64,000 nucleotides of DNA, from positions 68,553 through 132,552 of the forward strand of contig CAXXET010000001.1 in assembly GCA_963666115.2 (NCBI GenBank), in the 5' to 3' direction. The notes below the pieces were generated by a model that made no database searches, was not told the origin of the DNA, and saw only the letters and a program-made list of their open reading frames with translations. The stretch's first letter is position 1. Each line of letters starts with the position of its first letter. This DNA comes from Dehalococcoidia bacterium. Lineage in GTDB: Bacteria; Chloroflexota; Dehalococcoidia; UBA6926. Positions 6,666 to 25,241 of this stretch are shown here, piece after piece. A program made the position numbers and the translations under genes.

Positions 6666-7702
6666 CCGTCGCCGCTCCCATAAGCGTCAAGGACGTGTTC
6701 GGACGCCTCCTGCAAGACCTCCGTATCTCTGTCACGGACCGGTGCAATTTCCGTTGCTCGTACTGCATGCCGGCGGAGATCTTCGGCGAGCGGTACGAAT
6801 TCCTGCCGCGCGACCAGATCCTGACGTTCGAGGAGATTGAACGCCTGACGCGCATCTTTGCCGGGCTGGGCGTGACCAAGATTCGCGTGACGGGCGGGGA
6901 GCCCCTGCTGCGCAGGGATTTGCCTGAGCTAATCTGTATGCTCGCGGCGGTTGACGGCATCGACGACCTGTCGCTGACGACGAACGGCTACTTGCTGCCG
7001 CCCATGGCCAGGGAGCTGCGGGAGGCAGGGCTGCGCCGCGTGACAATCAGTCTGGACAGCCTGGACGATGAGACATTCAAGCGCATGAACGGACGCGGTT
7101 TCGGGGTTGATCGCGTACTGGAGGCCATCGAGGCGGCGGAGGACGCCGGGCTCGGGCCAATCAAGATCAATAGCGTCGTGCAGCGCGGCGTCAACGAAAA
7201 CTTTGTGACCGACCTCGCCAGGTATTTTAAGGGCACGGACAAGATTGTGCGGTTCATCGAATACATGGACGTCGGGACAATCAACGGGTGGAAACTGGAA
7301 GAGGTCGTGCCGAGCAGGGAACTCGCCGCGCTCATCAACGCCGAGACGCCCATCATTCCAATCGACCGAAACTATCGCAGCGAAACATCGTCGCGTTATG
7401 CGTATGCTGACGGCACCGGCGAGATTGGGTTCATTTCGTCGGTCTCGGAGCCGTTCTGCGCCGACTGCACACGCGCCCGCCTCTCGACGGACGGCAGGCT
7501 CTACACGTGCCTGTTCACGGGCGACGGCCATGATTTGCGCGGGCCGATGCGCGACGGCGCGACGGACGATGAGATTATCTCGCTGATCACCGGCGTGTGG
7601 GAGCAGCGGACGGATCGGTACTCCGAGGAGCGAACCAGCGAGACTGCCGCGCTCGCGGGCAAGAAGCCGGAGCGCGTTGAGATGTACCACATCGGAGGGT
7701 AG
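6662..7702 (+). CDS. moaA: GTP 3',8-cyclase
   Basis: CNFRCSYC radical SAM motif, FCADCTRARL, C-terminal HIGG. Confidence 0.96.
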   Translation: MTVAAPISVKDVFGRLLQDLRISVTDRCNFRCSYCMPAEIFGERYEFLPRDQILTFEEIERLTRIFAGLGVTKIRVTGGEPLLRRDLPELICMLAAVDGIDDLSLTTNGYLLPPMARELREAGLRRVTISLDSLDDETFKRMNGRGFGVDRVLEAIEAAEDAGLGPIKINSVVQRGVNENFVTDLARYFKGTDKIVRFIEYMDVGTINGWKLEEVVPSRELAALINAETPIIPIDRNYRSETSSRYAYADGTGEIGFISSVSEPFCADCTRARLSTDGRLYTCLFTGDGHDLRGPMRDGATDDEIISLITGVWEQRTDRYSEERTSETAALAGKKPERVEMYHIGG

Positions 7703-7726
7703 GCGCAGACGCCGCCGGACAATCCG

Positions 7727-8224
7727 ATGACCGACCAGGAGAACTCTGGGAAACTGTCCCACGTCGATCCGACAGCCGGGCCGCGCATGGTCGACGTGGG
7801 CGACAAGGACGTGACGCGGCGAGAGGCCGTGGCGCGGGGCAGGGTGGTCATGTCGCCCGAAACGCTGACGGCGATCCGCGAACAGGCCACGCCCAAGGGC
7901 GACGTGCTGTCCGTGGCGCAGTTGGCGGGCGTGATGGCCGCCAAGCGCACCTCTGAATTGATTCCCCTGTGCCATCCACTGCCGCTGTCATTCGTTGGCG
8001 TTAAACTGACGCCGGGTGAGGACGGGGCGAGCGTCGAAATAGAGTCGACCGTTCGGACGACGGGTCAGACGGGGGCCGAGATGGAGGCTCTAACGGCGGT
8101 GAGCGTGGCGGGGCTGACAGTCTATGACATGTGCAAGGCCATCGACCGCGCGATGCGGGTGGAGGCCGTCCGGCTGGTGTCCAAGTCCGGAGGGCAGAGC
8201 GGGGACGTGCGGCTAGAGGATTAG
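7727..8224 (+). CDS. moaC: Cyclic pyranopterin monophosphate synthase
   Basis: [33 protein letters not shown]. Confidence 0.96.
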
Positions 8225-12001: not shown

Positions 12002-13256
12002 ATGCTATCGACGACAAATCCGCTGACTCATCTCCCCTACATATGGGGGGGGGGGGGGGGTAGATATCCAGCCTCCGAATCTGGCGATTCCCAGTGACTA
12101 CTCGGGAGGTTACTGGCGCGCTCGCCTCGAGAATGCTACGGTCGCCGACAGTTATGCGGCTCATCAACTGATTGGCGATCCTCTGGCCGATGCGGCCATT
12201 GCGGATATGGACGGGATGGACCACGCTGAATCGGCGATGATGCTGCGGGCTGCGATGGATAACCCCGGCGGCAGCGTTCTGCGGGATGCGCCACAAGGCG
12301 TTCAGGATCTCATCGCCTCCGTAGACGAGCCGCCGGACTGGGTAAACTACAACGATTTTCTGCCGGGCTCGCGCATGTTCCTGCGCAACGCGCAGGTCAT
12401 CCTGGCGGCGTTCGTTGGGGGAACCCTCGTGGAGGGCTTCGGGACGAACATCAGCAAGTCGTTTTTCATCACCGGGCGGCTGCGCGACCAGGGAGTACGC
12501 CGCCTGATGCAGAATAACCGCCACATGCTGGAATCGTTTCTGCCGGGGGGACTGGCGCGAGCGGGCGACGGCCTGAAGTTGAGCCTGCGCCTGCGCCTCG
12601 TCCACGCGCAAGTGAGGAAGCTGCTGCATGAATCCGACGAGTGGGACACGGACGCCTGGGGAGAGCCGTTGAGCGCGGCGCACCTGGGGATGGCCATCTC
12701 CGGGTTCTCAGCGCGCCTTCTCTATCACATAAAGCGTCTGGGGGCGCGGTATAACGATGAAGAGCGGCGGAGCTTCATGGCGATCTGGCGCTACACGGGC
12801 TACATCATGGGAATCCCGGAGACCATCCTCTTCAAGGATGAGGAGGAGGCGCTGGAGATTTACAGGATCGGCACGATGTGCGAGCCGGAGCCTGGGCCTG
12901 AGGCCATCGTGATGGCGCACGCCCTGATCAATTCCGCGCCGCTGGTGGTCGGCATCACCGATCCACAGGAACGCCAGAAGCTGGCGAATTACGTGTTTCG
13001 CATATCACGCGCGGTCATCGGGGCGGATATGGCCGACAAGCTGCACTATCCCAAGACGCCGATATTTGGGGTGCTGCCGCTGTTCCGGCTGCAAACCCGC
13101 TACCACAAGTTCCTGTCGCGGTGGATTCCGTGGATGGCGCAGGACGACAATTTCACGCAGTTCATCGGGCTGTTGGAGGCGGCGAACGTGACGGAGACGG
13201 ACATTCACTACCATATGCCGGATCACGTTTATTCTGAGAATTCGAGTCCCTGGTAG
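12002..13256 (+). CDS. MpaB/Lcp-type (DUF2236) heme oxygenase-family protein; 5' end interrupted at a G16 tract
   Basis: GDPLADAAI, PPDWV, LRLRLVHAQVRKLL, WGEPLS, WRYTGYIMGIPE; coding-like frame extends upstream of ATG 12207 to the G run. Confidence 0.8.
12045..12060. repeat. Poly-G homopolymer (G16)
   Basis: Direct count of ATAT-G16-TAGAT. Confidence 0.95.
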
Positions 13257-14614
13257 GAGCGGGCCGCAAGTTCGCCGCTCCGCACGGCGGATTCCATGGT
13301 GGCGGGCCAGCCGGTTTGCGTCCAGTCTCCTGCGAGGTAGAGGCCGGGTATTGCCGTGGCCTGCGGCGGCCTTTGGGTTTGGATGCCGGGGAGGCATCGA
13401 AACGTTGCCTGCGGCTGCTTGACGACGCGAAAGTAGGTCATCGAGGCGTTGCGCGTCTCCGGCAGCGCGGCGCGAAGTTCAGCCGTGGCTAGCTCGCGCA
13501 GTTCTTCCTCCGTCATGCCCGCCTCGCGCCATGCGGCGCTAATCGACACCAGCAAGCGCGAGTCCGAGCCGGCCGATTCCTGCATGAGCGAGCGGTTGAA
13601 TACCCACTGGATCGGGCTGTCCAGGACGGTCAGGAACGGCTCATCCATTACCGGGCGGTCGTAGCCGATATGCAGCCCGACGATGGGCGCCCATTCCAGT
13701 TGGGGGAGGCCGATGTCCGTTAAGGCAGTGTCGGCGCTCTCGTCGCGGGCCAGCAGCCTTTCGACGCCGTCCCACGGCACGGCGCTGATCACCGCGTCCG
13801 CGTCTATGGTTTCGTCGCCAAGCCTGACACCCGTGACGCGGCCATTGTGAACTCTTAGCTCTGTCACGCGGCGCCCCATGATGAACCGCCCGCCGCGCGA
13901 TTCGACATACCGGCGCGCTCCGTCGCTGACCAGCGTTGACAGGCCGACACGCGAGTAGCCGAGGTCGGCCATTCCCTTGCCTGCGAGCAGGGAGTCCTGG
14001 AATGCCATGATGCCCATGTAGGCGCTCGCGGCGTCGATGGTGTCATTGAGGATGGGCAGCGTGATGAGTTCCCAGAGAGCAGCTATCGTCCTGTCGTTCT
14101 GCCCGCGCCGCATGAGCCACTCTCGAAAGGACATCGCCTCCAGCCGTTCCCGCTCTCGTTTCCTGTTCGCGCGGCGAATGCTTAACATGCCGCGTATGAC
14201 GCGCAGCCGGTCCGTGAGGCTGAGATGCCGGTAGCGGAGGAGGGAGGGCAGGAGGTCGAGCGGGGCGGGAAGAAACCGCGTTGATGACAGCACGCCGCGC
14301 TTTCCGTCCCTGTTAGCGACCGTCACGCGCAGCCGCGACTGGAGGGTCGTTTGGTCGAACGCGCCGATTTTCTTGAGGAAGTCGATGTATTCGGTGCAGC
14401 AGCGGAGGAAGACGTGCTGACCGTTGTCCAGCTCCATGCCCGTTTGGGGATCGAGAAAGGAAAAGGCGCGCCCGCCCAAGTAGTTGCGGCGCTCGATCAG
14501 GGTGACGGCGATGCCGCGTTCGGCGAGGGCGCAGGCGGCGGAGAGGCCGGCAAGCCCGCCGCCGATCACCACGCAGTGGCCACGCGCTCCATTGGGACGT
14601 AACTCTGAATCCAC
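13229..14614 (-). CDS. hpnE: Hydroxysqualene dehydroxylase
   Basis: IGGGLAGL FAD motif, LDNGQHVFL, LAGDWTQTGWPATMESAVRSG; follows hpnCD. Confidence 0.92.
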   Translation of the reverse strand: MDSELRPNGARGHCVVIGGGLAGLSAACALAERGIAVTLIERRNYLGGRAFSFLDPQTGMELDNGQHVFLRCCTEYIDFLKKIGAFDQTTLQSRLRVTVANRDGKRGVLSSTRFLPAPLDLLPSLLRYRHLSLTDRLRVIRGMLSIRRANRKRERERLEAMSFREWLMRRGQNDRTIAALWELITLPILNDTIDAASAYMGIMAFQDSLLAGKGMADLGYSRVGLSTLVSDGARRYVESRGGRFIMGRRVTELRVHNGRVTGVRLGDETIDADAVISAVPWDGVERLLARDESADTALTDIGLPQLEWAPIVGLHIGYDRPVMDEPFLTVLDSPIQWVFNRSLMQESAGSDSRLLVSISAAWREAGMTEEELRELATAELRAALPETRNASMTYFRVVKQPQATFRCLPGIQTQRPPQATAIPGLYLAGDWTQTGWPATMESAVRSGELAARSYQGLEFSE

Positions 14615-15450
14615 AGTCGCACCGCCAACCCAGTTTTCTCGCGGGTTGACAGGCCAACCCGACCTTCAAAGACGTTGTAGCTTTTCCCTTCGATTCTATC
14701 GAGGACGCGGCCATAGAGTCCGCCGAGGACGGCGGGGAAGGCGCGGGTGCGAACGGGCAGCAGCTTGAGCAGACGCTTGCCGCGCTCGAAGTGCTCCCGC
14801 GCGCGCGCCACCTCGAACTCCATCAGGCTGCGAAACTGGTCGTTCACCGTGCCCGCCATCAGGTCTTCCTCGGTGTAGCCGAATCGCCGCAGGTCTTCCT
14901 GGGGGATGTAGATGCGGCCACGCTCGGCGTCCTCGCGGACGTCGCGCAGGATGTTGGTGAGCTGCATGGCGAGCCCCAAGTCGATTGCGTACTCGCGGGC
15001 GCGCCGGTCCTTGTAGCCCATAATCTGGATGCAAATGAGGCCCACGACGGACGCGACGCGGTAGCAATACGCGGCCAGGTCATCAAAGGTCTCGTAACGG
15101 GAGACGGTGAGGTCCATTTCGACGCCGCGCGCGACTTCGGTGAGGTCTTCATAGGGAATGTCGTATTCGGCGGCGGCGTGGGCCAGCGCCTCGAAGACCG
15201 GCCCGTCCGGCTTCCCCTCCCGCGCGTCATCGAGCAGGGCGTCGATGCCCTGTATGCGGCGCGTTTTTTCGTCGATGGGCAGGTCGTCGTCTGATAGATC
15301 GTCGCAGAGGCGGCAGTAGGCGTAGGCGGCGTACATGGCGCGTCGTCTGCGGCGGGGCAGGGTGACGAAGGCGTAGTAGAAGTTGCCCGCCGCCTTGCGC
15401 GTGATTGCGCGGCAGTGTTCGTAGGCATCCGCCAACTGCTGGTCTGACAT
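14566..15450 (-). CDS. hpnD: Presqualene diphosphate synthase
   Basis: NFYYAF, RLCDDLSD, YCYRVASVVG, QLTNILRDVREDAERGRIYIP. Confidence 0.9.
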   Translation of the reverse strand: MSDQQLADAYEHCRAITRKAAGNFYYAFVTLPRRRRRAMYAAYAYCRLCDDLSDDDLPIDEKTRRIQGIDALLDDAREGKPDGPVFEALAHAAAEYDIPYEDLTEVARGVEMDLTVSRYETFDDLAAYCYRVASVVGLICIQIMGYKDRRAREYAIDLGLAMQLTNILRDVREDAERGRIYIPQEDLRRFGYTEEDLMAGTVNDQFRSLMEFEVARAREHFERGKRLLKLLPVRTRAFPAVLGGLYGRVLDRIEGKSYNVFEGRVGLSTREKTGLAVRLWIQSYVPMERVATAW

Positions 15451-15484
15451 ATGTCCGGGTGTTCCAGAACCGCCGGCGCCTGTC

Positions 15485-16369
15485 TCAAATCTTCCGCGTG
15501 AGCTTCATCTGAAGCCACGTCTTTGCGAGCAGCCACGTCTTGCGCCTCTTCGTGACCGTTGGCCGCCGAGAGAGCACGTCATAGTACTGCCTTTCGATGG
15601 CGTCCAGGACGCGGAGGCCGCCCAGGGTAAACAGCTTCACGTGCAGTTTGTAGGCGCCGTCGAGCGTGTCAACAAGGGGCAATCCCTCGTGGAACAGCAG
15701 GCGCGTTCGCTCCACCTGGAACAGGATGAGTTCTCGAAAGGCAAGCGAGCTTTCGCCGCGCGCCAGTTCCTCCTCGGTGTACTCGAACCGGCGCATATCC
15801 TCCTGCGGGATGTAGATGCGCCCTTTCTCATAGTCGCGCCTCACGTCCTGCCAGAAGTTGGCGAGTTGGAGGGCGGTGCAGGTGGCGTCGGACAGGGCGC
15901 GCCGCTCCGGGTCGTCCTTGCCGATCAACGTGAGATACAACCGGCCGACGGGGTTTGCGGAATGGCGGCAATAGTTCAGCAGGTCGTTGTAGGTTTCGTA
16001 GCGCGTGTTGACCTGGTCCATCCGGTTGGCCTCGATAAGATCGAGGAACGGCTGCCTCTCGATATCGAATGCGGCGATGGTGTGTTGGAGGGCCTGGAAT
16101 TGCGGTTCGGCGGGCGCGCCGGAGTAGCATTGCTCCAGTTGCGCGGCCCAGTCGTCCAGCAGGGCAAGCCGATCTCCCTCCGCCTCGTCGCCGAGGTCGT
16201 CAACGCCGCGGCAGTACGCATAGACGGCGGCGACGTGGGGGAGCATGTCGCGCGGCATGAGGCGCGACACGACGGAGAAATTCTCGTAGTGCGACCGCGC
16301 AAGATCGATGCAGTCGCGGTAGGCGGGCTCCAGGGATGCCGGAATCTCCGCCGCCTCACGCGTCCGCAT
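15485..16369 (-). CDS. hpnC: Hydroxysqualene synthase
   Basis: HYENFSVVS, YCRHSANPVGR, CTALQLANFWQD. Confidence 0.92.
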   Translation of the reverse strand: MRTREAAEIPASLEPAYRDCIDLARSHYENFSVVSRLMPRDMLPHVAAVYAYCRGVDDLGDEAEGDRLALLDDWAAQLEQCYSGAPAEPQFQALQHTIAAFDIERQPFLDLIEANRMDQVNTRYETYNDLLNYCRHSANPVGRLYLTLIGKDDPERRALSDATCTALQLANFWQDVRRDYEKGRIYIPQEDMRRFEYTEEELARGESSLAFRELILFQVERTRLLFHEGLPLVDTLDGAYKLHVKLFTLGGLRVLDAIERQYYDVLSRRPTVTKRRKTWLLAKTWLQMKLTRKI

Positions 16370-17037: not shown

Positions 17038-18177
17038 ATGATTGAATGGCTTGGCATCGAGCACCTCTTTGAGCTTACGGGCGTGGAGGCGGTCGCGGCG
17101 TTCTTCACGCCCCTCGCCGTCTTTGCCGCGTTCTTCGTGGCGCAGCTCATCATTCCGGGCAGGAAAGTGCCCGGCTACGTTACCGATCCCGGCACCGGCC
17201 AACCGCGCAACTATCGACTCAACGGCATCCTCGTCTTCATCCTGGCGGTCATTATCTGGGCGACGGAAATCACGGGAATGCCGCGTGACTGGTTCTACCG
17301 GTCGTCCCTCTACGCCATTGCCGGCGGCACCGTCTTCACGCTGATCATGTCGATCGCGGCGGTCTACAGCCAGCCGGTGGGCGACATCAAGAACCCGCTG
17401 ATGGCGCTGTGGGAGGGCAGGGCGCGGGAGATTTCCCTCTTTGGCGAGCGCGTCGACATCAAGATGTACTTCTACGTTGTCGGCGGCACGATGCTGGCAA
17501 TCAACGCCATGTCCGGCGCGGCGTGGCACTACGACCAATTCGGGAGCGATTTCAACCCCGGCGTCTTTCTCTACGCCGCGTTCTTCACGTTCTACGTGTT
17601 CGACTACTTCATCTGGGAGCGCGTCCAGCTCTACACCTACGACCTGATCTACGAGCGGATGGGATTCAAGATGTTCTGGGGCGGCATCGTCATCTACGGC
17701 TGGGTCTTCATCCTGCCGCTGTGGGGGATGGCCGCGCACCCGAACCCCGGCTTCTCCACCTTCTGGACGTATGCCTGGCTCATCGGCTCCACCGCGCTCT
17801 TCCTCCTTGGCTGGAGCATCGGGCGCGGCGCGAACCTCCAGAAATACACGTTCAAGCGGTGGCCGGACCGCAAGTTCCTGGGGATCATCCAGCCGAAGTA
17901 CATCGAGGCCGGAGACCGCAAGATCCTCTACACCGGCCTCTGGGGCGTTGCCCGCCACTTCAACTACATGGGCGAGGGATTTTTGTCCTTCGCGGTCGGG
18001 CTGTCGTTCGGCCACTTTACGAACCCGTGGGCGTGGGCATACTTCGTCTTCGTCGTCTCGTTCTTCACGTGGCGGCAGCGCAGCGACGAGACGCACTGCG
18101 AAGCGAAGTACGGCGCAGACAAGTGGGCCGAATACAAATCGCGCGTCAAGTGGCGCATCATGCCCGGCATCTACTGA
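17038..18177 (+). CDS. ERG4/ERG24/DHCR7-family sterol reductase
   Basis: YRLNG, ERMGFKMFWG, ANLQKYTFK, GLWGVARHFNYMGE, CEAKYG..W..Y..RV..RIMPGIY; multi-TM. Confidence 0.9.
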   Translation: MIEWLGIEHLFELTGVEAVAAFFTPLAVFAAFFVAQLIIPGRKVPGYVTDPGTGQPRNYRLNGILVFILAVIIWATEITGMPRDWFYRSSLYAIAGGTVFTLIMSIAAVYSQPVGDIKNPLMALWEGRAREISLFGERVDIKMYFYVVGGTMLAINAMSGAAWHYDQFGSDFNPGVFLYAAFFTFYVFDYFIWERVQLYTYDLIYERMGFKMFWGGIVIYGWVFILPLWGMAAHPNPGFSTFWTYAWLIGSTALFLLGWSIGRGANLQKYTFKRWPDRKFLGIIQPKYIEAGDRKILYTGLWGVARHFNYMGEGFLSFAVGLSFGHFTNPWAWAYFVFVVSFFTWRQRSDETHCEAKYGADKWAEYKSRVKWRIMPGIY

Positions 18178-19022: not shown

Positions 19023-19997
19023 ATGACGAACAACAAGACAAACGTGAACGGCAACGGGCTAACGGCAGGCATCCGCGGCGGCGACGTGGTGTGCTTCGGC
19101 CTGCTGACTCATACGCTCCTGATTAGGGTCGATGAGCTGCCTGAGCACAACGGCGGCGTGCCGATCCTCGGCTCACTGGACTCGCTGGGCGATGACGCCG
19201 CCATCGCCGCGAGCATCCTGACGCGGTGGGACGTACCGACGCGCCTCATCACGAATCCAACCGGCAACGACAGCCGGGGAGAAGTGGTCCGGGAGCACCT
19301 CGACGCGTGGGGCGTGAATGTCCGCCAGGACACTGAAATCATCGACGGGATGGAGACCCCGTTCGAGGTGTCGATCATCGATCCCGTGGGCGCCCGGACG
19401 TACTTCCAGCGACGCGACCCTGCCGCCATGGCCGAACTCACGCCGCCGGACCCCTCCCAGATCAAGAACGCCGGCCTGCTCTACGTCGACTGGTACGACG
19501 GCCCCAGCGTCGTTCATGCCGCGCGTGACGCCGTTGCCCAGGGCGTGCCCGTCTACGTCAACCTGGAATCCGAATACGACAGCGGCGGATGGGTTGCGAA
19601 CCTGATTGGAGACGCGAGCATCTGCCAGGTTTCGCTGGACACGCCGGAGGCAGCCGACGCGGGTGATCCGGCCGCTATCGCCCGCAGCCTGATTGACCGC
19701 GGGGTGGAGATGGCAGTCGTGACGCTGGGCGCGGACGGCTGCGTGGTTGCGCGGGGGCAGGAGGCGTATCACATCAGGCCGCCGCAGGTGGACGTCATCG
19801 ACTGCAACGGGGCGGGCGCGGCCTGCTCGGCGGGGATCATGTACGGGCTGTGGGCGGGGTGGCCGCTGGAGGACATCGGGCGGTACGCCGCAGCCTATGC
19901 CGGGCTCAAATGCGGCATCAACGGCCTCGCGGAACTGGACGTCAGCGACGTTCAGAAGACGGCGGCGGCGCTCCCGTCGCAGCGTCTGCCGCTCTAA
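19023..19997 (+). CDS. PfkB/ribokinase-family protein with atypical motifs
   Basis: GNDSRG, VVTLGADG, VIDCNGAGAA (canonical DTxGAGD). Confidence 0.85.
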   Translation: MTNNKTNVNGNGLTAGIRGGDVVCFGLLTHTLLIRVDELPEHNGGVPILGSLDSLGDDAAIAASILTRWDVPTRLITNPTGNDSRGEVVREHLDAWGVNVRQDTEIIDGMETPFEVSIIDPVGARTYFQRRDPAAMAELTPPDPSQIKNAGLLYVDWYDGPSVVHAARDAVAQGVPVYVNLESEYDSGGWVANLIGDASICQVSLDTPEAADAGDPAAIARSLIDRGVEMAVVTLGADGCVVARGQEAYHIRPPQVDVIDCNGAGAACSAGIMYGLWAGWPLEDIGRYAAAYAGLKCGINGLAELDVSDVQKTAAALPSQRLPL

Positions 19998-20007
19998 TCT
20001 CGCGGGG

Positions 20008-20697
20008 TTAGTTCTTCCTGGCCCAGAAGACGCAGTGCCGCATCGGCTTGTGGTCGGTGAAGTACATCAGGCCGCCAAGCTTCTCGCTGCTGTCCGCTTC
20101 AATGAGGGACAGGCCGGACTCGCCCAGGACGCCCAACACGCGCTCCTCCTCATAGAGCTGGAACGTTCTCGCGACGCCGTCCGTGCCGAACGCGCTGTCG
20201 CTGACGTCAGCAATGCCCGATCCGACCTTGAACATCAGCTGGAGGACGCCGCCGGGCGCGAGCACCCTGGCAAGCTCGGGCAGCGTCGTGCCCTCAACGT
20301 CCTGCGGCTGCAGGTGCTGGATGACGGCGTTGCACAGGACGAGGTCAAAGGAATCCGACTCATACGGCAGGGGCTCCCTCAGATCGGCGACCTTGATCCT
20401 GTCGGCGATCTCGGGGTGCATCTTCCTGCCCAGTTCGATGTTCTCCTCGACGGCGTCGATGCCGTATGCGTCGTAGCCACGGGAATGGAGCAGGGCAACG
20501 TGGCGGGCCCCCGCGCCGCATCCGGCGTCCAGACTCCGCTTGCCGGACGCCAGGCCGGTTGCGCGATCGAGCAGGGCGATGTCGCCTGTCAGCTTGGGAT
20601 GGGAGACCTTGTCATACAGTGAGTTCTCGTATTCGAGAGCGACTTCGGAGTACCTCCGAAAATGGTTCCGGTAGAAGTCCAGCGACTCAAACTGCAT
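20008..20697 (-). CDS. Class I SAM-dependent methyltransferase
   Basis: LDAGCGAG, GIDA, FDLVLCNAVIQH, RVLAPGG. Confidence 0.9.
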   Translation of the reverse strand: MQFESLDFYRNHFRRYSEVALEYENSLYDKVSHPKLTGDIALLDRATGLASGKRSLDAGCGAGARHVALLHSRGYDAYGIDAVEENIELGRKMHPEIADRIKVADLREPLPYESDSFDLVLCNAVIQHLQPQDVEGTTLPELARVLAPGGVLQLMFKVGSGIADVSDSAFGTDGVARTFQLYEEERVLGVLGESGLSLIEADSSEKLGGLMYFTDHKPMRHCVFWARKN

Positions 20698-20848
20698 GCG
20701 GCCCCCTTAGGCTTAGACACGGCATCCGGCGAAGCGCGCTGCGCGACGCCACCACTGGATTTTACATTGACTTAACGTTCCTGTAAAATCGCTCTTCAAC
20801 CTGACAACCAGGTGACGGGTTGCCCGTGCCGCAGGGGCCGGGTTCGGG

Positions 20849-23848
20849 GTGGCGGGGGAAGACAGCATGGTTTTAGTGGAATCCAGCGTCCATCAGCTAT
20901 TTGAGGCGCAAGCTGCCAGCACGCCTGGCGCGGCGGCGATTGTATTCGACGACGGGCAGATGACCTACGCGGAGCTGAACGGCCTGACGGACGCGCTGGG
21001 CGCCTACCTGCGAAGCTGCGGCGTTGGGACCGATGAGCCCGTCGGCATCTTCATGGACACGTGCGCGGAGTACATCGTCGGCGCTATCGCGACGCTCAAG
21101 GCGGGCGGGGCTTTCATGCCGATGGACGTTGATTCTCCCGAGCCGCTGCTGCGCGGCATCGTGTCCGAGGCGCAACCGAAGGTCGTGCTCACGAAAAAGC
21201 AATTCCTGCCCAGGCTGGCTGAGTTCAGCGAGACTCACGTGCTCCCCGTCGACAGCGACCGCTCGTGGCGGCGGTACGGGATGAGAGGCCGCGCGGCGCG
21301 CGGCGACAACAACGACCTCGCGTTCATCCCCTATACGTCCGGCACCACCGGAGACCCGAAAGGCGTGATGCTGACCGTTGGAGCGATGATGTCCTCCTAC
21401 GAGGCCAGGTACACGTACAGTTCCTACGGCGCCGGCGACCGCGTCGGCTGCAACATCTTCTTCCCCTGGGAGTTCCTGCGCCCGCTGCTTAAGGGCGGGA
21501 CGGTGTACGTGATCCCGGACGATGTCATATTTGTCCCGCGCGCGCTCGCGCGGTTCATTGCGGAGCGCCGGCTGACGGAGATACTGTTCACGCCATCCCT
21601 CCTGCAGAGCCTGTTGAACTCCGCGAGCCACGGGCGGCTCCGGGAACAGATGTCGTCCCTGCGCGTCGTCTGGCTGAACGGGGAGGTCGTGCCTGCCAGC
21701 CTGCTCAGGCAAGCGCGGGAAATCCTGCCGCCAAACGCCCGCCTGTTCAACACCTACAGCATCAGTGAGACACACGACGTCTGCACTATCGACCTGACCG
21801 CCCTCCCGTTGGACGGAATGGACACGTGCCCGGTGGGGTATGCGATGGACGGCGTGAAGCTCCGCGTGCGCCCAGAGGACGGCTCCGCCGTGCAGGAAAC
21901 GGGCGTCGGGGAACTGCTCATCGGCGGGCAGGGCGTGGCGCGCGGATACCTCAAGAGGCCCGACCTGGATGCCGACAGGTTCGTCACGTTGAACGGAGAG
22001 CGTTATTACGCGACCGGCGACCTGGCGAACGTTGCGTCCGATGGAATGACGACGATCGTTGGCCGGACCGATTCCATGGTCAAGATTCGGGGATACACCG
22101 TGTACCTCGGCGCGATTGAAGAGATGCTGCGGAGGCACTGTGACGCGGCGGACGCTGCGGTCGTCGTCGAAGACATGGACGAGACGAGCAAGCGGCTGGT
22201 GGCCTACGTCGTTCGCGGCCCGGATGCCGCGTGGAAGCTGGACGCCCGCAGCGGGGCGAGCAGGGATTTGCGGAACGTCCTGGAGCGATATCTGCCGCTC
22301 TACTCCGTTCCGTCTCACTATATTGAGTTGGACGCCCTCCCGATCAACCAGCAGACCGGCAAGCTCCAGCGCAAGGCGCTGCCGTCGCTGCGCAACGGGG
22401 CATCGCCCGCCGGGCAGCGAATCAGGCTGACCAAAAATGCCACCGCAGAGGAGAGGCGCGCGGCATTGCGTGAACTCTGGGCGGACACGCTGGAACTCAA
22501 CCTCGACGACCTGGAGGACGACTGGGACTTCTTTGACCTTGGCGGCCACTCGTTGGCGGGCATGGCTCTGACCATCGCCATCGAGGAAACGTTTGGGATC
22601 GAGTTGAGCGGGGTCGAGGTGTACGACTACCCCACCATCGGCCAACTGTCGCGATACCTTGAAAATGGCGGGGCAGCGGGAGAAGCATCCGGCAAGACGC
22701 TGACCCAGGACGCGCGGCTGGACCCGCAAATCGCGCCCCGGGGCGACGCCCCGGTGACGCGGCTGAGCGATGCGTCCTCGATCCTGATCACTGGAACCAC
22801 CGGATTCCTCGGCGCATTCCTGCTCGATCAACTGGTGCAATCCACGGGGCCGGACACGACGTTCTATTGCCTTGCGCGCGGCGGCGACGCCGCAGACACC
22901 GAGCCGTCCAGCCGGGTGCTGGACACGTTGAAGTTCTACGGGCTCCCCAGCCAATCCGCGGGCGACCGGATCGTCACCGTCTCCGGAGACCTCACGCAAC
23001 CGCTGATGGGACTCGGCGGCGACAAGTATGACGAGCTGGCGCAAAAGATCGACATGGTGTTCCACTGCGCCGCGTCAGTCAACTACGTCTACCCGTATTC
23101 GGCGTCCAAGCCCCACACCGTCGGCGGCACCACGGAGGTGCTCAAGTTCGCCTGCGCCGGCGCGCCAAAGGCGGTTCACTACATCTCATCCAACGGCATC
23201 TTCCCCGGCGGCGACACAACGCCGTACCTGGAAAACAGCGAGATCGACGCCTGGGTTGATCGGATGGAGGGGGGCTACAACCAGTCGAAGTGGGTCGCGG
23301 AACGACTTGTGTGGCATTCCGTCTCACGCGGCCTGCCGGTCTGCATGTACCGCCCCGGCAACATCGGCCACGACAGCAGGACGGGCACGGGCAATCCGAA
23401 TGACTACCTGCTGCTGATCCTCAAGGCCTGCGCGCGGCTGGGCAGCGCGCCCCACGCCCCGGACTGGCTGTTTGAGATGACCCCGGTGGACTTCCTGGTG
23501 TCCGCGATCAGCCGGATCGCCGATGATCCGGGGCACCTGGGCAGCGTCTACAACGTGGTTCAGCAGGACCCGGCGCCGGCGGACCAGGTCTTTGATCTCA
23601 TGCAGCGCAACGGGCACATCACCGAGCGGGTGTCGCTGGAGGAGTGGAAGTCCAGGCTGCAAGAGACAGGCGATCACGATGATGACCTGGAACTGAAGAT
23701 GCTGGCCCGCTCGCTGGACTCGGTGGAGCCGTACCTGACGGATGACAGCATCTACGACATGACCAGGTTCACGGAGGCGCTGTCAGAGATCGGCCTTGCC
23801 ATGCCGGACCTCGGCGCCGACTACGTGACTATGTTCCTTGAAAAGTAG
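20849..23848 (+). CDS. Stand-alone NRPS-like A-T-R reductase
   Basis: A domain YTSGTTGDPKG, YATGD, TGKLQRK; T domain FFDLGGHSL; R domain TGTTGFLG and YNQSKWVAE. Confidence 0.93.
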   Translation: MAGEDSMVLVESSVHQLFEAQAASTPGAAAIVFDDGQMTYAELNGLTDALGAYLRSCGVGTDEPVGIFMDTCAEYIVGAIATLKAGGAFMPMDVDSPEPLLRGIVSEAQPKVVLTKKQFLPRLAEFSETHVLPVDSDRSWRRYGMRGRAARGDNNDLAFIPYTSGTTGDPKGVMLTVGAMMSSYEARYTYSSYGAGDRVGCNIFFPWEFLRPLLKGGTVYVIPDDVIFVPRALARFIAERRLTEILFTPSLLQSLLNSASHGRLREQMSSLRVVWLNGEVVPASLLRQAREILPPNARLFNTYSISETHDVCTIDLTALPLDGMDTCPVGYAMDGVKLRVRPEDGSAVQETGVGELLIGGQGVARGYLKRPDLDADRFVTLNGERYYATGDLANVASDGMTTIVGRTDSMVKIRGYTVYLGAIEEMLRRHCDAADAAVVVEDMDETSKRLVAYVVRGPDAAWKLDARSGASRDLRNVLERYLPLYSVPSHYIELDALPINQQTGKLQRKALPSLRNGASPAGQRIRLTKNATAEERRAALRELWADTLELNLDDLEDDWDFFDLGGHSLAGMALTIAIEETFGIELSGVEVYDYPTIGQLSRYLENGGAAGEASGKTLTQDARLDPQIAPRGDAPVTRLSDASSILITGTTGFLGAFLLDQLVQSTGPDTTFYCLARGGDAADTEPSSRVLDTLKFYGLPSQSAGDRIVTVSGDLTQPLMGLGGDKYDELAQKIDMVFHCAASVNYVYPYSASKPHTVGGTTEVLKFACAGAPKAVHYISSNGIFPGGDTTPYLENSEIDAWVDRMEGGYNQSKWVAERLVWHSVSRGLPVCMYRPGNIGHDSRTGTGNPNDYLLLILKACARLGSAPHAPDWLFEMTPVDFLVSAISRIADDPGHLGSVYNVVQQDPAPADQVFDLMQRNGHITERVSLEEWKSRLQETGDHDDDLELKMLARSLDSVEPYLTDDSIYDMTRFTEALSEIGLAMPDLGADYVTMFLEK

Positions 23849-23875: not shown

Positions 23876-24877
23876 CTAGATGAGCCAGTTGGCCGTGTAT
23901 CCTGCCAGGCACGCGCCCAGTACCGCCAGCACGATGTAGAGGATGAATACGCGGACGCGCACAAGCGCGGCTACCGCCACCGCGGAATACAGGCTGACCG
24001 CCGCGCCGGAGATCATCAGCGCAAGGGCGGCCCCAAAGCTCATTCCTTTGTCCATCAGCCCGCTGACGAGGGGCAGCGCCGCATAGCCGTCCAGGTACAT
24101 GGGAGCGCCCGCGATGGCGGCCAGGGGGACTGACAACAAGCCCGCGTCCACGCCGAACAGGGATGTCACCCACGCATCGGGAACCAGCCGCTGCAAGAAC
24201 ACCTCCAGGACCAGGGCGAGCGCAAGCCACCGCAGCATTGGCCGCGTGCTGTCCCAGACAGCCGGCCAGAAACGCGGCTGCTCGTCCTCGCAGTCGTATT
24301 GCTCCAACACCTCAGGGCGCATCAGTTCCGGCCCGGCGTTTCGATAGCCCGGCAGGAGCCAGGTCACGCCGCCCGCCAACAGCCCAATGCCGAATGCCGA
24401 CACTGTCTTGGCAATCGCGAAGGGGACGCCAATTATGCCGACGGTTATCAGGAACATGCTGGGATCGGTAACCGGCGAGGCGATCCAGAACGCCATGATC
24501 GGGGCGAGAGGAAGCCCCTTGCGCAGAAGCGTCGCGATCAGCGGCAGCATGCCAAGGCCGCACACCGGCGTGACCGCGCCCACTAGGCTGGCGATGACAA
24601 CGGCGCGCGCCGGGCGTCCGTTCAGCCAGGCAAGCGCCCGATCAGACCAGCGTCCCGCCGTCAACGCGCCCGCAATGAGCGCGGCTATGACGACGACAGG
24701 CAGCAATGCGAGGAGACTCCGGCCCACCCCGCTCAGCATATCGGCGTTCGTCTCGGGAAACAGTGAGCCGACCGTCAGCAGTCCCGCGGTGAGCATCCAC
24801 GTCAACGCCTCCGTGCTGGGACGACGTCGCAGATTCCAGCGGGCGGGGGAGAGCAGTGAAGAACTTGAAAGCACCAT
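23876..24877 (-). CDS. DUF318/ArsP-like predicted permease
   Basis: GAVTPVC, MAFWIASP, GAPMY repeated halves; multi-TM. Confidence 0.8.
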   Translation of the reverse strand: MVLSSSSLLSPARWNLRRRPSTEALTWMLTAGLLTVGSLFPETNADMLSGVGRSLLALLPVVVIAALIAGALTAGRWSDRALAWLNGRPARAVVIASLVGAVTPVCGLGMLPLIATLLRKGLPLAPIMAFWIASPVTDPSMFLITVGIIGVPFAIAKTVSAFGIGLLAGGVTWLLPGYRNAGPELMRPEVLEQYDCEDEQPRFWPAVWDSTRPMLRWLALALVLEVFLQRLVPDAWVTSLFGVDAGLLSVPLAAIAGAPMYLDGYAALPLVSGLMDKGMSFGAALALMISGAAVSLYSAVAVAALVRVRVFILYIVLAVLGACLAGYTANWLI

Positions 24878-24939: not shown

Positions 24940-25016
24940 TGGTGGGCGGCGAGGGTCTCGAACCCCCGGCCTTCTGCGTGTAAAGCAGACGCTCTAACCA
25001 ACTGAGCTAGCCGCCC
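24940..25016 (-). tRNA. tRNA-Val(TAC)
   Basis: GGGCGGCTAGCTCAG...TCTGC-TTTACAC-GCAGA...GTTCGAG...CCA. Confidence 0.96.
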
Positions 25017-25027
25017 ACGGGGGCGAA

Positions 25028-25105
25028 TGGCGCGCTTGGCGGGACTCGAACCCACGGCCTCAGCCTCCGCAGGGCTGCGCTCTATCCAGACTGAGCTACA
25101 AGCGC
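25028..25105 (-). tRNA. tRNA-Arg(GCG)
   Basis: GCGCTTGTAGCTCAG...CAGCC-CTGCGGA-GGCTG...GTTCGAGTCC...GCCA. Confidence 0.94.
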
Positions 25106-25154
25106 GTGTCACAACAACGCGGCGTCTTTGACCGCCGTTCGTCCGGCCTGTCGT

Positions 25155-25241
25155 TGGTGCCGAGGGAGAGATTTGAACTCTCACGCCCGCTAGGGGCACT
25201 GCGCCCTGAACGCAGCGCGTCTGCCGTTCCGCCACCTCGGC
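25155..25241 (-). tRNA. tRNA-Leu(CAG)
   Basis: GCCGAGGTGGCGGAA...CTGCG-TTCAGGG-CGCAG, long variable arm, CCA end. Confidence 0.96.

Follow-up and report, generated by a model that had tools for sequence, protein, structure and literature searches.

The stretch of 64,000 nucleotides (the window) analyzed here belongs to an uncultured Dehalococcoidia bacterium of marine or sponge origin. At 20849..23848 on the plus strand it encodes a protein composed of adenylation (A), thiolation (T) and reductase (R) domains, hereafter the window protein. This A-T-R enzyme probably reduces a permanently charged osmolyte such as glycine betaine or dimethylsulfoniopropionate (DMSP), because its substrate pocket and its ancestry match those of enzymes acting on such osmolytes. 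We use the term onium acid for a carboxylate with a permanently charged trimethylammonium or dimethylsulfonium head, for example glycine betaine, β-alanine betaine or DMSP. A bacterial A domain for an onium acid is already known in the context of a polyketide synthase (PKS), namely that of BurA. No description of a bacterial A-T-R onium-acid reductase was found in the literature searched.

An earlier note on this DNA, made from the sequence alone, had described the A-T-R reading frame and three pocket motifs, all of which are present: CNIFFPWEFLRPLL at residues 201–214, WLNGEVV at 275–281 and YSISETH at 303–309. Here and below, positions are those of the window (those given with a locus number such as L057 are of that locus), and residues are counted from the GTG of the A-T-R frame.

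Substrate pocket and ancestry of the adenylation domain

The first motif, CNIFFPWEFLRPLL (21449..21490, plus strand), is a shortened A4 loop without an equivalent of Asp235, and F204, F205 and W207 in it form the first part of a predicted aromatic cage. The stretch from C201 to W207 contains no acidic residue, and in HMMER alignments to solved canonical A domains it shows gaps opposite their FDxS loop. The amino-binding Asp is thus absent and an aromatic cluster stands in its place, as the earlier note had it. The second motif, WLNGEVV (21671..21691, plus strand), supplies W275, the third cage residue, which is equivalent to W270 of the fungal enzyme ATRR. The third is part of a modified A5 motif, YSISETHD (residues 303–310; 21755..21778, plus strand), whose D310 lies at the position of ATRR E304 and is predicted to face the cation.

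ATRR of Aspergillus nidulans (AN5318), a glycine betaine reductase of the nonribosomal-peptide-synthetase-like type with choline as its product, has the domain order A-T-R1-R2. In the available text of Hai, Huang & Tang 2019 (bioRxiv 10.1101/559534), its A domain, in which Asp235 is absent, is proposed to cage glycine betaine by F201, W204 and W270 against E304. We took the ATRR pocket code from the sequences of eight Aspergillus and Penicillium proteins, which we regard as ATRR orthologs because their cage residues sit at the published numbering. Positions 201, 204, 270 and 304 are F, W, W and E exactly in six of the eight; in the other two the same motifs occur, offset by one residue. Both BLASTP and MAFFT alignments pair F201 of ATRR with F204 of the window protein, F202 with F205, W204 with W207, W270 with W275, and E304 with D310. 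The A4 loop reads CNVFFIWEILRPLL in the ATRR orthologs and CNIFFPWEFLRPLL in the window protein, the motif of the third cage residue LWLNGEVV versus VWLNGEVV, and the modified A5 motif CYSACETHE versus TYSISETHD. The absence of Asp235 from a shortened A4 loop and the N, E and H of the WLNGE and ETH motifs are thus common to the two proteins. The motif match to Aspergillus ATRR, which the earlier note had proposed, is borne out by this one-to-one alignment of cage residues and by the placement of the A domains in one clade (see below).

The pocket is invariant among close relatives. A word-indexed protein search in which 8000 candidates were scored gave 2622 matches at E ≤ 0.001, and the best 120 of them, all A-T-R proteins of 910–1010 amino acids with 65–100% identity to the window protein, were taken as the family. 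Residues F204, W207, W275 and D310 are unchanged in 120/120 family proteins, as are N277, G278, E279 and H309. Because these residues are kept in every family protein, the conservation of the pocket is far beyond chance.

A search with the pocket only (residues 190–320) among proteins of 1139–3250 amino acids returned 92 matches among 570 candidates. Of these, 88 are ATRR-type or PKS-hybrid proteins (107–130 bits, 45–54% identity), and the remaining four are ordinary nonribosomal peptide synthetases (NRPSs) with at most 62 bits. The 88 comprise 76 eukaryotic proteins of about 1204–1373 amino acids, most of which contain A, T and NAD_binding_4 domains together with a short-chain dehydrogenase/reductase (SDR) domain, and 12 bacterial proteins of about 1900–2570 amino acids that also contain PKS domains. 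The eukaryotic matches are from a tunicate, an oomycete, protists and a large number of fungi, six Aspergillus species among them. At the E304 position, Asp is found in all 26 Dehalococcoidia family sequences that were used for the trees described below, in the homolog from locus L053, in all 12 PKS hybrids and in 4 of 25 eukaryotic sequences. The other 21 eukaryotic sequences, including all fungal ones, have Glu.

In the bacterial PKS hybrids the motifs read FF.WE, WLNGEVVP and YSISETHDVC; the third matches the window motif exactly. These proteins also carry a second Asp at the T302 position. One of them, P0392, has the order thioesterase (TE), A, T, ketosynthase, acyltransferase, ketoreductase, acyl carrier protein; the others are P0393, P0395–P0397, P0399–P0402, P0411, P0422 and P0473, and some of their sources are named as Gammaproteobacteria or Hyphomicrobiaceae metagenome-assembled genomes. 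They may be DMSP- or betaine-primed PKSs of marine bacteria, since the domain order of P0392 agrees with the chemistry by which BurA is described to form gonyol. BurA is an NRPS-PKS of Burkholderia thailandensis. Its A domain (BurA-A) prefers DMSP according to the available text of Trottmann et al. 2020 (PMC7496086), where BurA D606 is equated with ATRR E304. BurA-A is bacterial, like the window A domain. As far as that description of BurA goes, the two also have in common a shortened hydrophobic stretch where the Asp235 loop would be, and Asp at the ATRR E304 position. The two proteins differ downstream: in the same account, BurA hands its acyl group to a PKS module on the way to gonyol, whereas in the window protein a thioester reductase follows the T domain.

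To place the A domain among its relatives, we constructed two trees. The first contains 84 A domains: the 26 Dehalococcoidia family sequences and that of L053, 25 eukaryotic ATRR-type sequences, the 12 PKS hybrids, 19 generic NRPS A domains chosen as the best-matching ones, and as the single outgroup a distant ligase from the window's own genome. The family, ATRR-type and PKS-hybrid sequences are separated together from the 19 generic NRPS A domains by a branch of length 0.84, which has a Shimodaira–Hasegawa-like approximate likelihood ratio test (SH-aLRT) support of 100. The second tree (50 sequences) was built with residues 190–320 removed, since the ATRR-type sequences had been chosen with the pocket as the query. 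It recovers the same split with an SH-aLRT of 99. Because the split survives removal of the pocket region, the kinship with ATRR-type A domains is more than a convergent pocket. Lys2, carboxylic acid reductase (CAR), BurA and the diatom enzyme PtNRPS1 are in neither tree, and the order of sub-lineages inside the clade is left open by both. The earlier note had asked for a tree against ATRR, Lys2 and CAR. The grouping with ATRR came out in both trees, and the family scores for Lys2 and CAR are far below the cut-offs.

Two eukaryotic proteins stand apart from the other ATRR-type sequences. P0427, from an oomycete, has the order TE-A-T-R with a single reductase and no SDR match in a Pfam scan; P0474, from a protist, contains a thioesterase domain and no SDR match in the precomputed Pfam list. 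Both have a pocket of the Asp type (..SWCELHD..) and group with the bacterial PKS hybrids (SH-aLRT 93–94). Single-reductase relatives appear to exist in eukaryotes too, given that neither protein has an SDR match.

Domain composition and comparison with ATRR

The A-T-R frame comprises 999 codons from the GTG, followed by a stop codon. Translation probably begins at the ATG at 20867 (Met7), which would give a protein of 993 amino acids, because the relatives are mostly 992 amino acids long and their alignments begin at residue 6–7 of the window protein. The public gene call (P0002, 962 amino acids) begins 37 codons further in, at Met38; it cuts off the conserved N-terminus and looks too short.

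The N-terminal core of the A domain occupies residues 18–368 (20900..21952, plus strand; AMP-binding PF00501, E 2e-66) and its C-terminal subdomain residues 423–501 (22115..22351, plus strand; AMP-binding_C PF13193). The T domain follows at residues 539–604 (22463..22660, plus strand; PP-binding PF00550, E 2.7e-18), with the phosphopantetheine serine S568 in GGHS 565–568. The thioester reductase domain spans residues 647–887 (22787..23509, plus strand; NAD_binding_4 PF07993, E 7e-54). Its NADPH motif, GTTGFLG, is at 649, and Y810 and K814 form its catalytic pair. All core catalytic motifs are intact: besides GGHS and GTTGFLG, these are SGTTG at 164, GRTDSMVKIRG at 405, GKLQRK at 504 and YNQSK at 810. 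The window protein is thus an A-T-R enzyme with one reductase domain, in agreement with the claim that a second reductase is missing: Pfam finds a single NAD_binding_4 domain in it, as opposed to the extra SDR domain of the ATRR ortholog.

Five NCBIfam models were compared with the window protein. Only the thioester reductase model TIGR01746 was passed (248.8 bits, cut-off 213.35). The amino-acid adenylation model TIGR01733 was not reached (286.3 bits, cut-off 317.4), a score in keeping with an atypical, non-amino-acid pocket. Broader searches were of little help. A whole-protein search of a library of 1.84 billion representatives returned only giant multi-module NRPSs, whose summed scores swamped the others, and a search for longer proteins with the whole A-T part was likewise swamped by giant NRPSs. 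A look-up of the A domain in the ESM Atlas gave generic adenylation clusters only.

An ortholog of ATRR (P0466) is colinear with the window protein over A-T-R1, with 34% identity over 983 columns (BLASTP, E 5e-171; window residues 6–960 against P0466 residues 2–965), and the catalytic tyrosine Y811 of ATRR R1 aligns with Y810. The R2 of ATRR, an aldehyde-reductase domain within an extra ~300 residues, represented in P0466 by an adh_short (SDR) domain at 1029–1219, has no counterpart in the window protein. When ATRR R2 was searched by tblastn against the window's own genome for a reductase that might act in trans, only ordinary SDRs with 27–34% identity were found. The window protein therefore shares with ATRR the aromatic cage without Asp235 and the grouping of the A domain, and departs from it in the A-T-R1-R2 order and in Glu304. 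We would file it as a bacterial variant of the ATRR/BurA-A kind and not as an ATRR, because it has no R2 and carries Asp instead of Glu. The genetic settings differ as well. The window gene is bacterial and has conserved partner genes; the available text of Hai et al. (bioRxiv 10.1101/559534) calls atrr 'exclusive to eukaryotes' and describes the fungal gene as having no conserved neighborhood.

No phosphopantetheinyl transferase (PPTase) is encoded in the 64-kb window, as the earlier note had observed. The genome has two matches to the PPTase family PF01648, both on another contig, C4, where one PPTase frame has 262 codons.

Partner genes and distribution

The A-T-R gene lies head-to-head with a gene for a class I S-adenosylmethionine (SAM)-dependent methyltransferase of 229 amino acids (20008..20697, minus strand; Pfam Methyltransf_11/25). 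The divergent intergenic region between them, 151 bp by the coordinates of the two reading frames (20698..20848), presumably holds both promoters; no Rfam family reaches its gathering score in it. Tail-to-tail with the methyltransferase gene lies a gene for a PfkB/ribokinase-family kinase of 324 amino acids (19023..19997, plus strand; PF00294).

Homologous loci were collected from contigs sampled at one genome per species, and 69 were returned. In 66 of them the A-T-R protein has 55–85% identity to the window protein (that of L066 is a 276-residue fragment); the other three are distant, with 26–33%. By their titles, the 66 loci are from Dehalococcoidia (63), Chloroflexota (2) and Gammaproteobacteria (1, L053). 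L053 is the sole non-Chloroflexota locus with the pair of A-T-R and methyltransferase genes. Its contig may have been wrongly binned, as opposed to reflecting gene transfer, because it also carries PAC2 and DinB/mycothiol-S-transferase-type genes.

An ortholog of the methyltransferase is found within 8 kb of the A-T-R gene in 38/69 loci. In 27 of these it has the same divergent position directly upstream; in the rest it is further upstream on the minus strand (3), upstream on the plus strand (4), directly downstream on the same strand (3, including L053), or far downstream and partial (1). The PfkB-family kinase is present in 25/69 loci, tail-to-tail with the methyltransferase. The remaining 31 loci have no nearby methyltransferase gene. 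A scan of 87 neighboring open reading frames (86 from 27 of these 31 loci, plus the methyltransferase of L053) revealed variable neighbors, transposases among them.

The co-occurrence of the three genes was assessed in 301 genomes sampled evenly from the class; related genomes among them are not independent, so the counts are descriptive. The A-T-R gene is present in 19 of the 301, including 14/16 other genomes of the window's genus. Profiles of the 38 methyltransferase and 24 kinase orthologs were then searched against the same genomes. The methyltransferase occurs in 22 of them, comprising 18 of the 19 A-T-R carriers and four non-carriers; in two carriers (G027 and G087) it is present but far from the A-T-R gene. 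The kinase occurs in 15, all of which also have the A-T-R gene and the methyltransferase (15/19 carriers, 0/282 non-carriers). This is the pattern of one functional unit made up of A-T-R enzyme, methyltransferase and kinase. In two genomes of the window's genus, G131 and G211, which are 92–94% complete, all three genes are absent, which suggests their loss or gain as a unit.

A profile of the 38 methyltransferase orthologs has phosphoethanolamine N-methyltransferases as its three best PDB matches (4krh, 5e-11; 4ine; 5wp5), with 5wp4 and 3uj6 lower, and the alignment spans approximately positions 36–206 of 229, beyond the SAM-binding core. The methyltransferase thus appears to bear a weak likeness to phosphoethanolamine N-methyltransferases.

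The window's genome (2.07 Mb in nine contigs, scored as 100% complete) contains no other A-T-R gene. Since this is the only such gene in a 2.07-Mb genome and is kept in 14/16 other genomes of the genus, its genus-wide single-copy retention fits core metabolism better than a secondary metabolite. Two OpuAC-type betaine-binding proteins are also encoded in the genome.

Several further genes were seen near the A-T-R gene. One or two SDR genes abut it just downstream in L003, L004 and L033, and in L057 an APH/EcKL-family kinase gene, whose product we take to have the fold of choline/ethanolamine kinases, lies directly upstream on the same strand (6785–7885, plus strand). These could be stand-ins for the missing R2 and the kinase, respectively. 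As general partners, both were rejected, the loci being too few to build on. Upstream in the window, 13229–16369 (minus strand) and 17038–18177 (plus strand) encode an amine-oxidase-type flavoprotein, two squalene/phytoene-synthase-family proteins and an ERG4/ERG24 sterol-reductase-family membrane protein. The flavoprotein and the two synthase-family genes presumably form an hpnCDE-like set. In about 10 loci an ERG4/ERG24 gene is again found close to the A-T-R gene, and in L054 and L060 (6713–7852) it lies directly upstream of it, beside a different methyltransferase gene. On the other side, just past a convergent ArsP-type permease gene (23876–24877, minus strand), there are three tRNA genes in a row (24943–25241, minus strand), the only Rfam matches in the window. 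A search of sequencing runs listed no RNA run for this sequence; DNA runs shared small fractions of words with it.

Proposed reaction, alternatives and implications

Because the characterized relatives take onium acids (glycine betaine by ATRR, DMSP by BurA-A), we consider it fairly likely that the A-T-R enzyme reduces an onium acid by an adenylate/thioester/hydride mechanism, as part of a module of reductase, methyltransferase and kinase. The charged head would be bound in the cage of F204, F205, W207 and W275 against the carboxylate of D310, and the acid would then be adenylated with ATP. A PPTase encoded outside the window would equip S568 with its phosphopantetheine arm, which would take over the acyl group, and the R domain (Y810/K814) would reduce the thioester with NAD(P)H to an onium aldehyde, or to the alcohol if it reduces twice. 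Given the three-gene module, the end product would probably be a further methylated and/or phosphorylated derivative. The intact domains and catalytic motifs, the residue-by-residue match of the pocket to ATRR, the common ancestry of the A domains and the co-occurrence of the three genes are observed; the onium-acid substrate, the redox end point, including any stop at the aldehyde, and what the methyltransferase and kinase do are inferred.

The earlier note had proposed a betaine-type substrate. The onium-type pocket supports that proposal in part, but the term is too narrow: Asp310 widens the range to onium acids in general, and glycine betaine is not the sole candidate. ATRR, with Glu, is described in the available text as strictly specific for glycine betaine and size-selective, refusing β-alanine betaine and DMSP (bioRxiv 10.1101/559534). 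Because Asp310 is as in BurA-A, which takes DMSP, and unlike the Glu of the size-strict ATRR, there is a hint that a three-carbon onium acid may be as likely a substrate as glycine betaine. The link between Asp or Glu and chain length rests on two characterized points and is a hint, not a rule. Within the onium reading, we therefore give roughly equal weight, in each case clearly short of even, to glycine betaine or dimethylglycine and to three-carbon onium acids such as DMSP or β-alanine betaine; other onium acids make up the rest.

A number of observations weigh against an onium-acid substrate. The acid in the pocket is Asp310 and not the Glu304 of ATRR, so that ATRR specificity is not simply transferable, and positions 278, 322 and 331 also differ from ATRR (S250 versus Thr, T302 versus Cys/Val, and V311 versus Ile/Val). 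The two trees were made by quick IQ-TREE searches and carry SH-aLRT support without bootstraps, their ATRR-type sequences come from a search with the pocket as the query, and BurA is assumed, from its published description, to be one of the PKS hybrids and to fall with them. The R domain scores 205–221 bits against ATRR R1 but 233 bits against the terminal R domain of an ordinary giant NRPS. Of the presumed partners, the methyltransferase model (pLDDT 85.6) retrieved only generic class I methyltransferases as ranked by Foldseek, and the kinase resembles generic sugar kinases in its PDB profile matches, not choline kinase. The BCCT transporter, MttB and choline-kinase families were not found in the window's genome.

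The R domain of MxaA (4u7w) also matches that of the window protein (E 3e-63), and by these scores the R domain does not look specifically ATRR-like. For this reason, aldehyde and alcohol cannot be told apart from the sequence. MxaA and MxcG reduce twice, to the alcohol. The R1 of ATRR halts at the aldehyde, according to the available text of its description (bioRxiv 10.1101/559534).

A further caution comes from the diatom Phaeodactylum tricornutum. In the available text of a 2026 report (PMC13194791), its A-T-R1-R2 enzyme PtNRPS1 binds L-tryptophan with a Kd of 0.35 µM, makes tryptophanol and accepts salicylates, so that membership in the clade is no guarantee of an onium substrate. By analogy, the substrate of the window protein might be an aryl acid or an aromatic amino acid such as tryptophan, which would be reduced to tryptophanal or tryptophanol; the aromatic residues of the pocket would then stack on the ring and not enclose a cation. 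Compared by description, PtNRPS1 has not only the architecture of ATRR, with two reductase domains, but also a related pocket (F214, F215, W217, F285, E319), sharing FF.W and the Glu with ATRR. However, its Phe285 stands where ATRR (W270) and the window protein (W275) have Trp, a replacement that the paper argues makes the pocket wider. The window protein has the three cage residues of ATRR, unchanged throughout the 120 family proteins, and the partner methyltransferase and kinase give no hint of indole chemistry. We consider aromatic substrates quite unlikely.

A somewhat stronger competitor, though still an unlikely one, is an ordinary NRPS-like reductase for an uncharged or α-amino carboxylate. 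Its aldehyde product would go into a secondary metabolite, for instance a pyrazine or a signal resembling a peptide aldehyde, and its pocket would have been inherited without the specificity. The functional diversity of A-T-R enzymes speaks for this reading, as do the generic R domain, the best NCBIfam match of the window protein (MxcG, which at 473.1 bits is far below the cut-off of 2300), and the 31/69 loci with variable neighbors, including transposases, and no methyltransferase within 8 kb. On the other hand, there is no Asp235 equivalent for an α-amino group, the TIGR01733 score is below its cut-off, and the cage and its acid are invariant in proteins down to 65% identity. The gene is also retained across the genus and has a single copy in the streamlined genome of 2.07 Mb, and the neighbor scans found no condensation, cyclization or tailoring genes conserved beside it. 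It is highly improbable that the window protein is a Lys2-type α-aminoadipate reductase or a reductase of fatty or aryl acids of the CAR type. CAR, Lys2 and MxcG/MxaA share the domain order and the ATP/phosphopantetheine/NADPH chemistry, but their A-domain pocket is of another type. The matches to Lys2 (TIGR03443, 284.8 bits versus a cut-off of 1030.1, residues 384–940 only) and CAR (NF041592, 161.8 bits versus 1300, part of the model only) are weak and partial, and on these scores, far below the cut-offs, we rejected both identities. The solved CAR structure 5msc (E 1e-36) is also a poorer match than NRPS A domains (5e-120), and the pocket search returned ATRR-type proteins and no Lys2 or CAR.

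Taking the onium-acid reading further, we tentatively entertain a more specific scenario, which may well not hold in full. In marine and sponge-associated Dehalococcoidia, a three-gene path new to bacteria might consist of the onium-acid reductase, an enzyme resembling phosphoethanolamine methyltransferases and a dedicated PfkB-type kinase. Spending ATP and NADPH, it might reductively convert an imported osmolyte (glycine betaine, dimethylglycine, β-alanine betaine or DMSP) to a phosphorylated onium alcohol, for example phosphocholine or a sulfonium or homocholine analog. It would amount to a prokaryotic reversal of choline or DMSP oxidation, and a switch from Glu to Asp might set the choice between two- and three-carbon acids across the ATRR/BurA clade.

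Few small organic molecules in the sea are as abundant as glycine betaine and DMSP, whose known bacterial fates are oxidative or demethylating. If the onium-acid reading is true, a reductive, ATP- and NADPH-driven bacterial route would be a new sink for these compounds and a new source of choline-like head groups, in a lineage common in sponges and deep water. The tight co-occurrence of A-T-R enzyme, methyltransferase and kinase defines a three-gene unit. The family consists of close bacterial relatives of the ATRR A domain in the form of stand-alone reductases, which bears on the origin of the eukaryotic enzyme. It is also a natural Asp variant of the cation-binding pocket. Set beside ATRR, which has Glu and takes glycine betaine only, and BurA-A, which has Asp and takes DMSP, it would yield a simple chain-length rule open to test.

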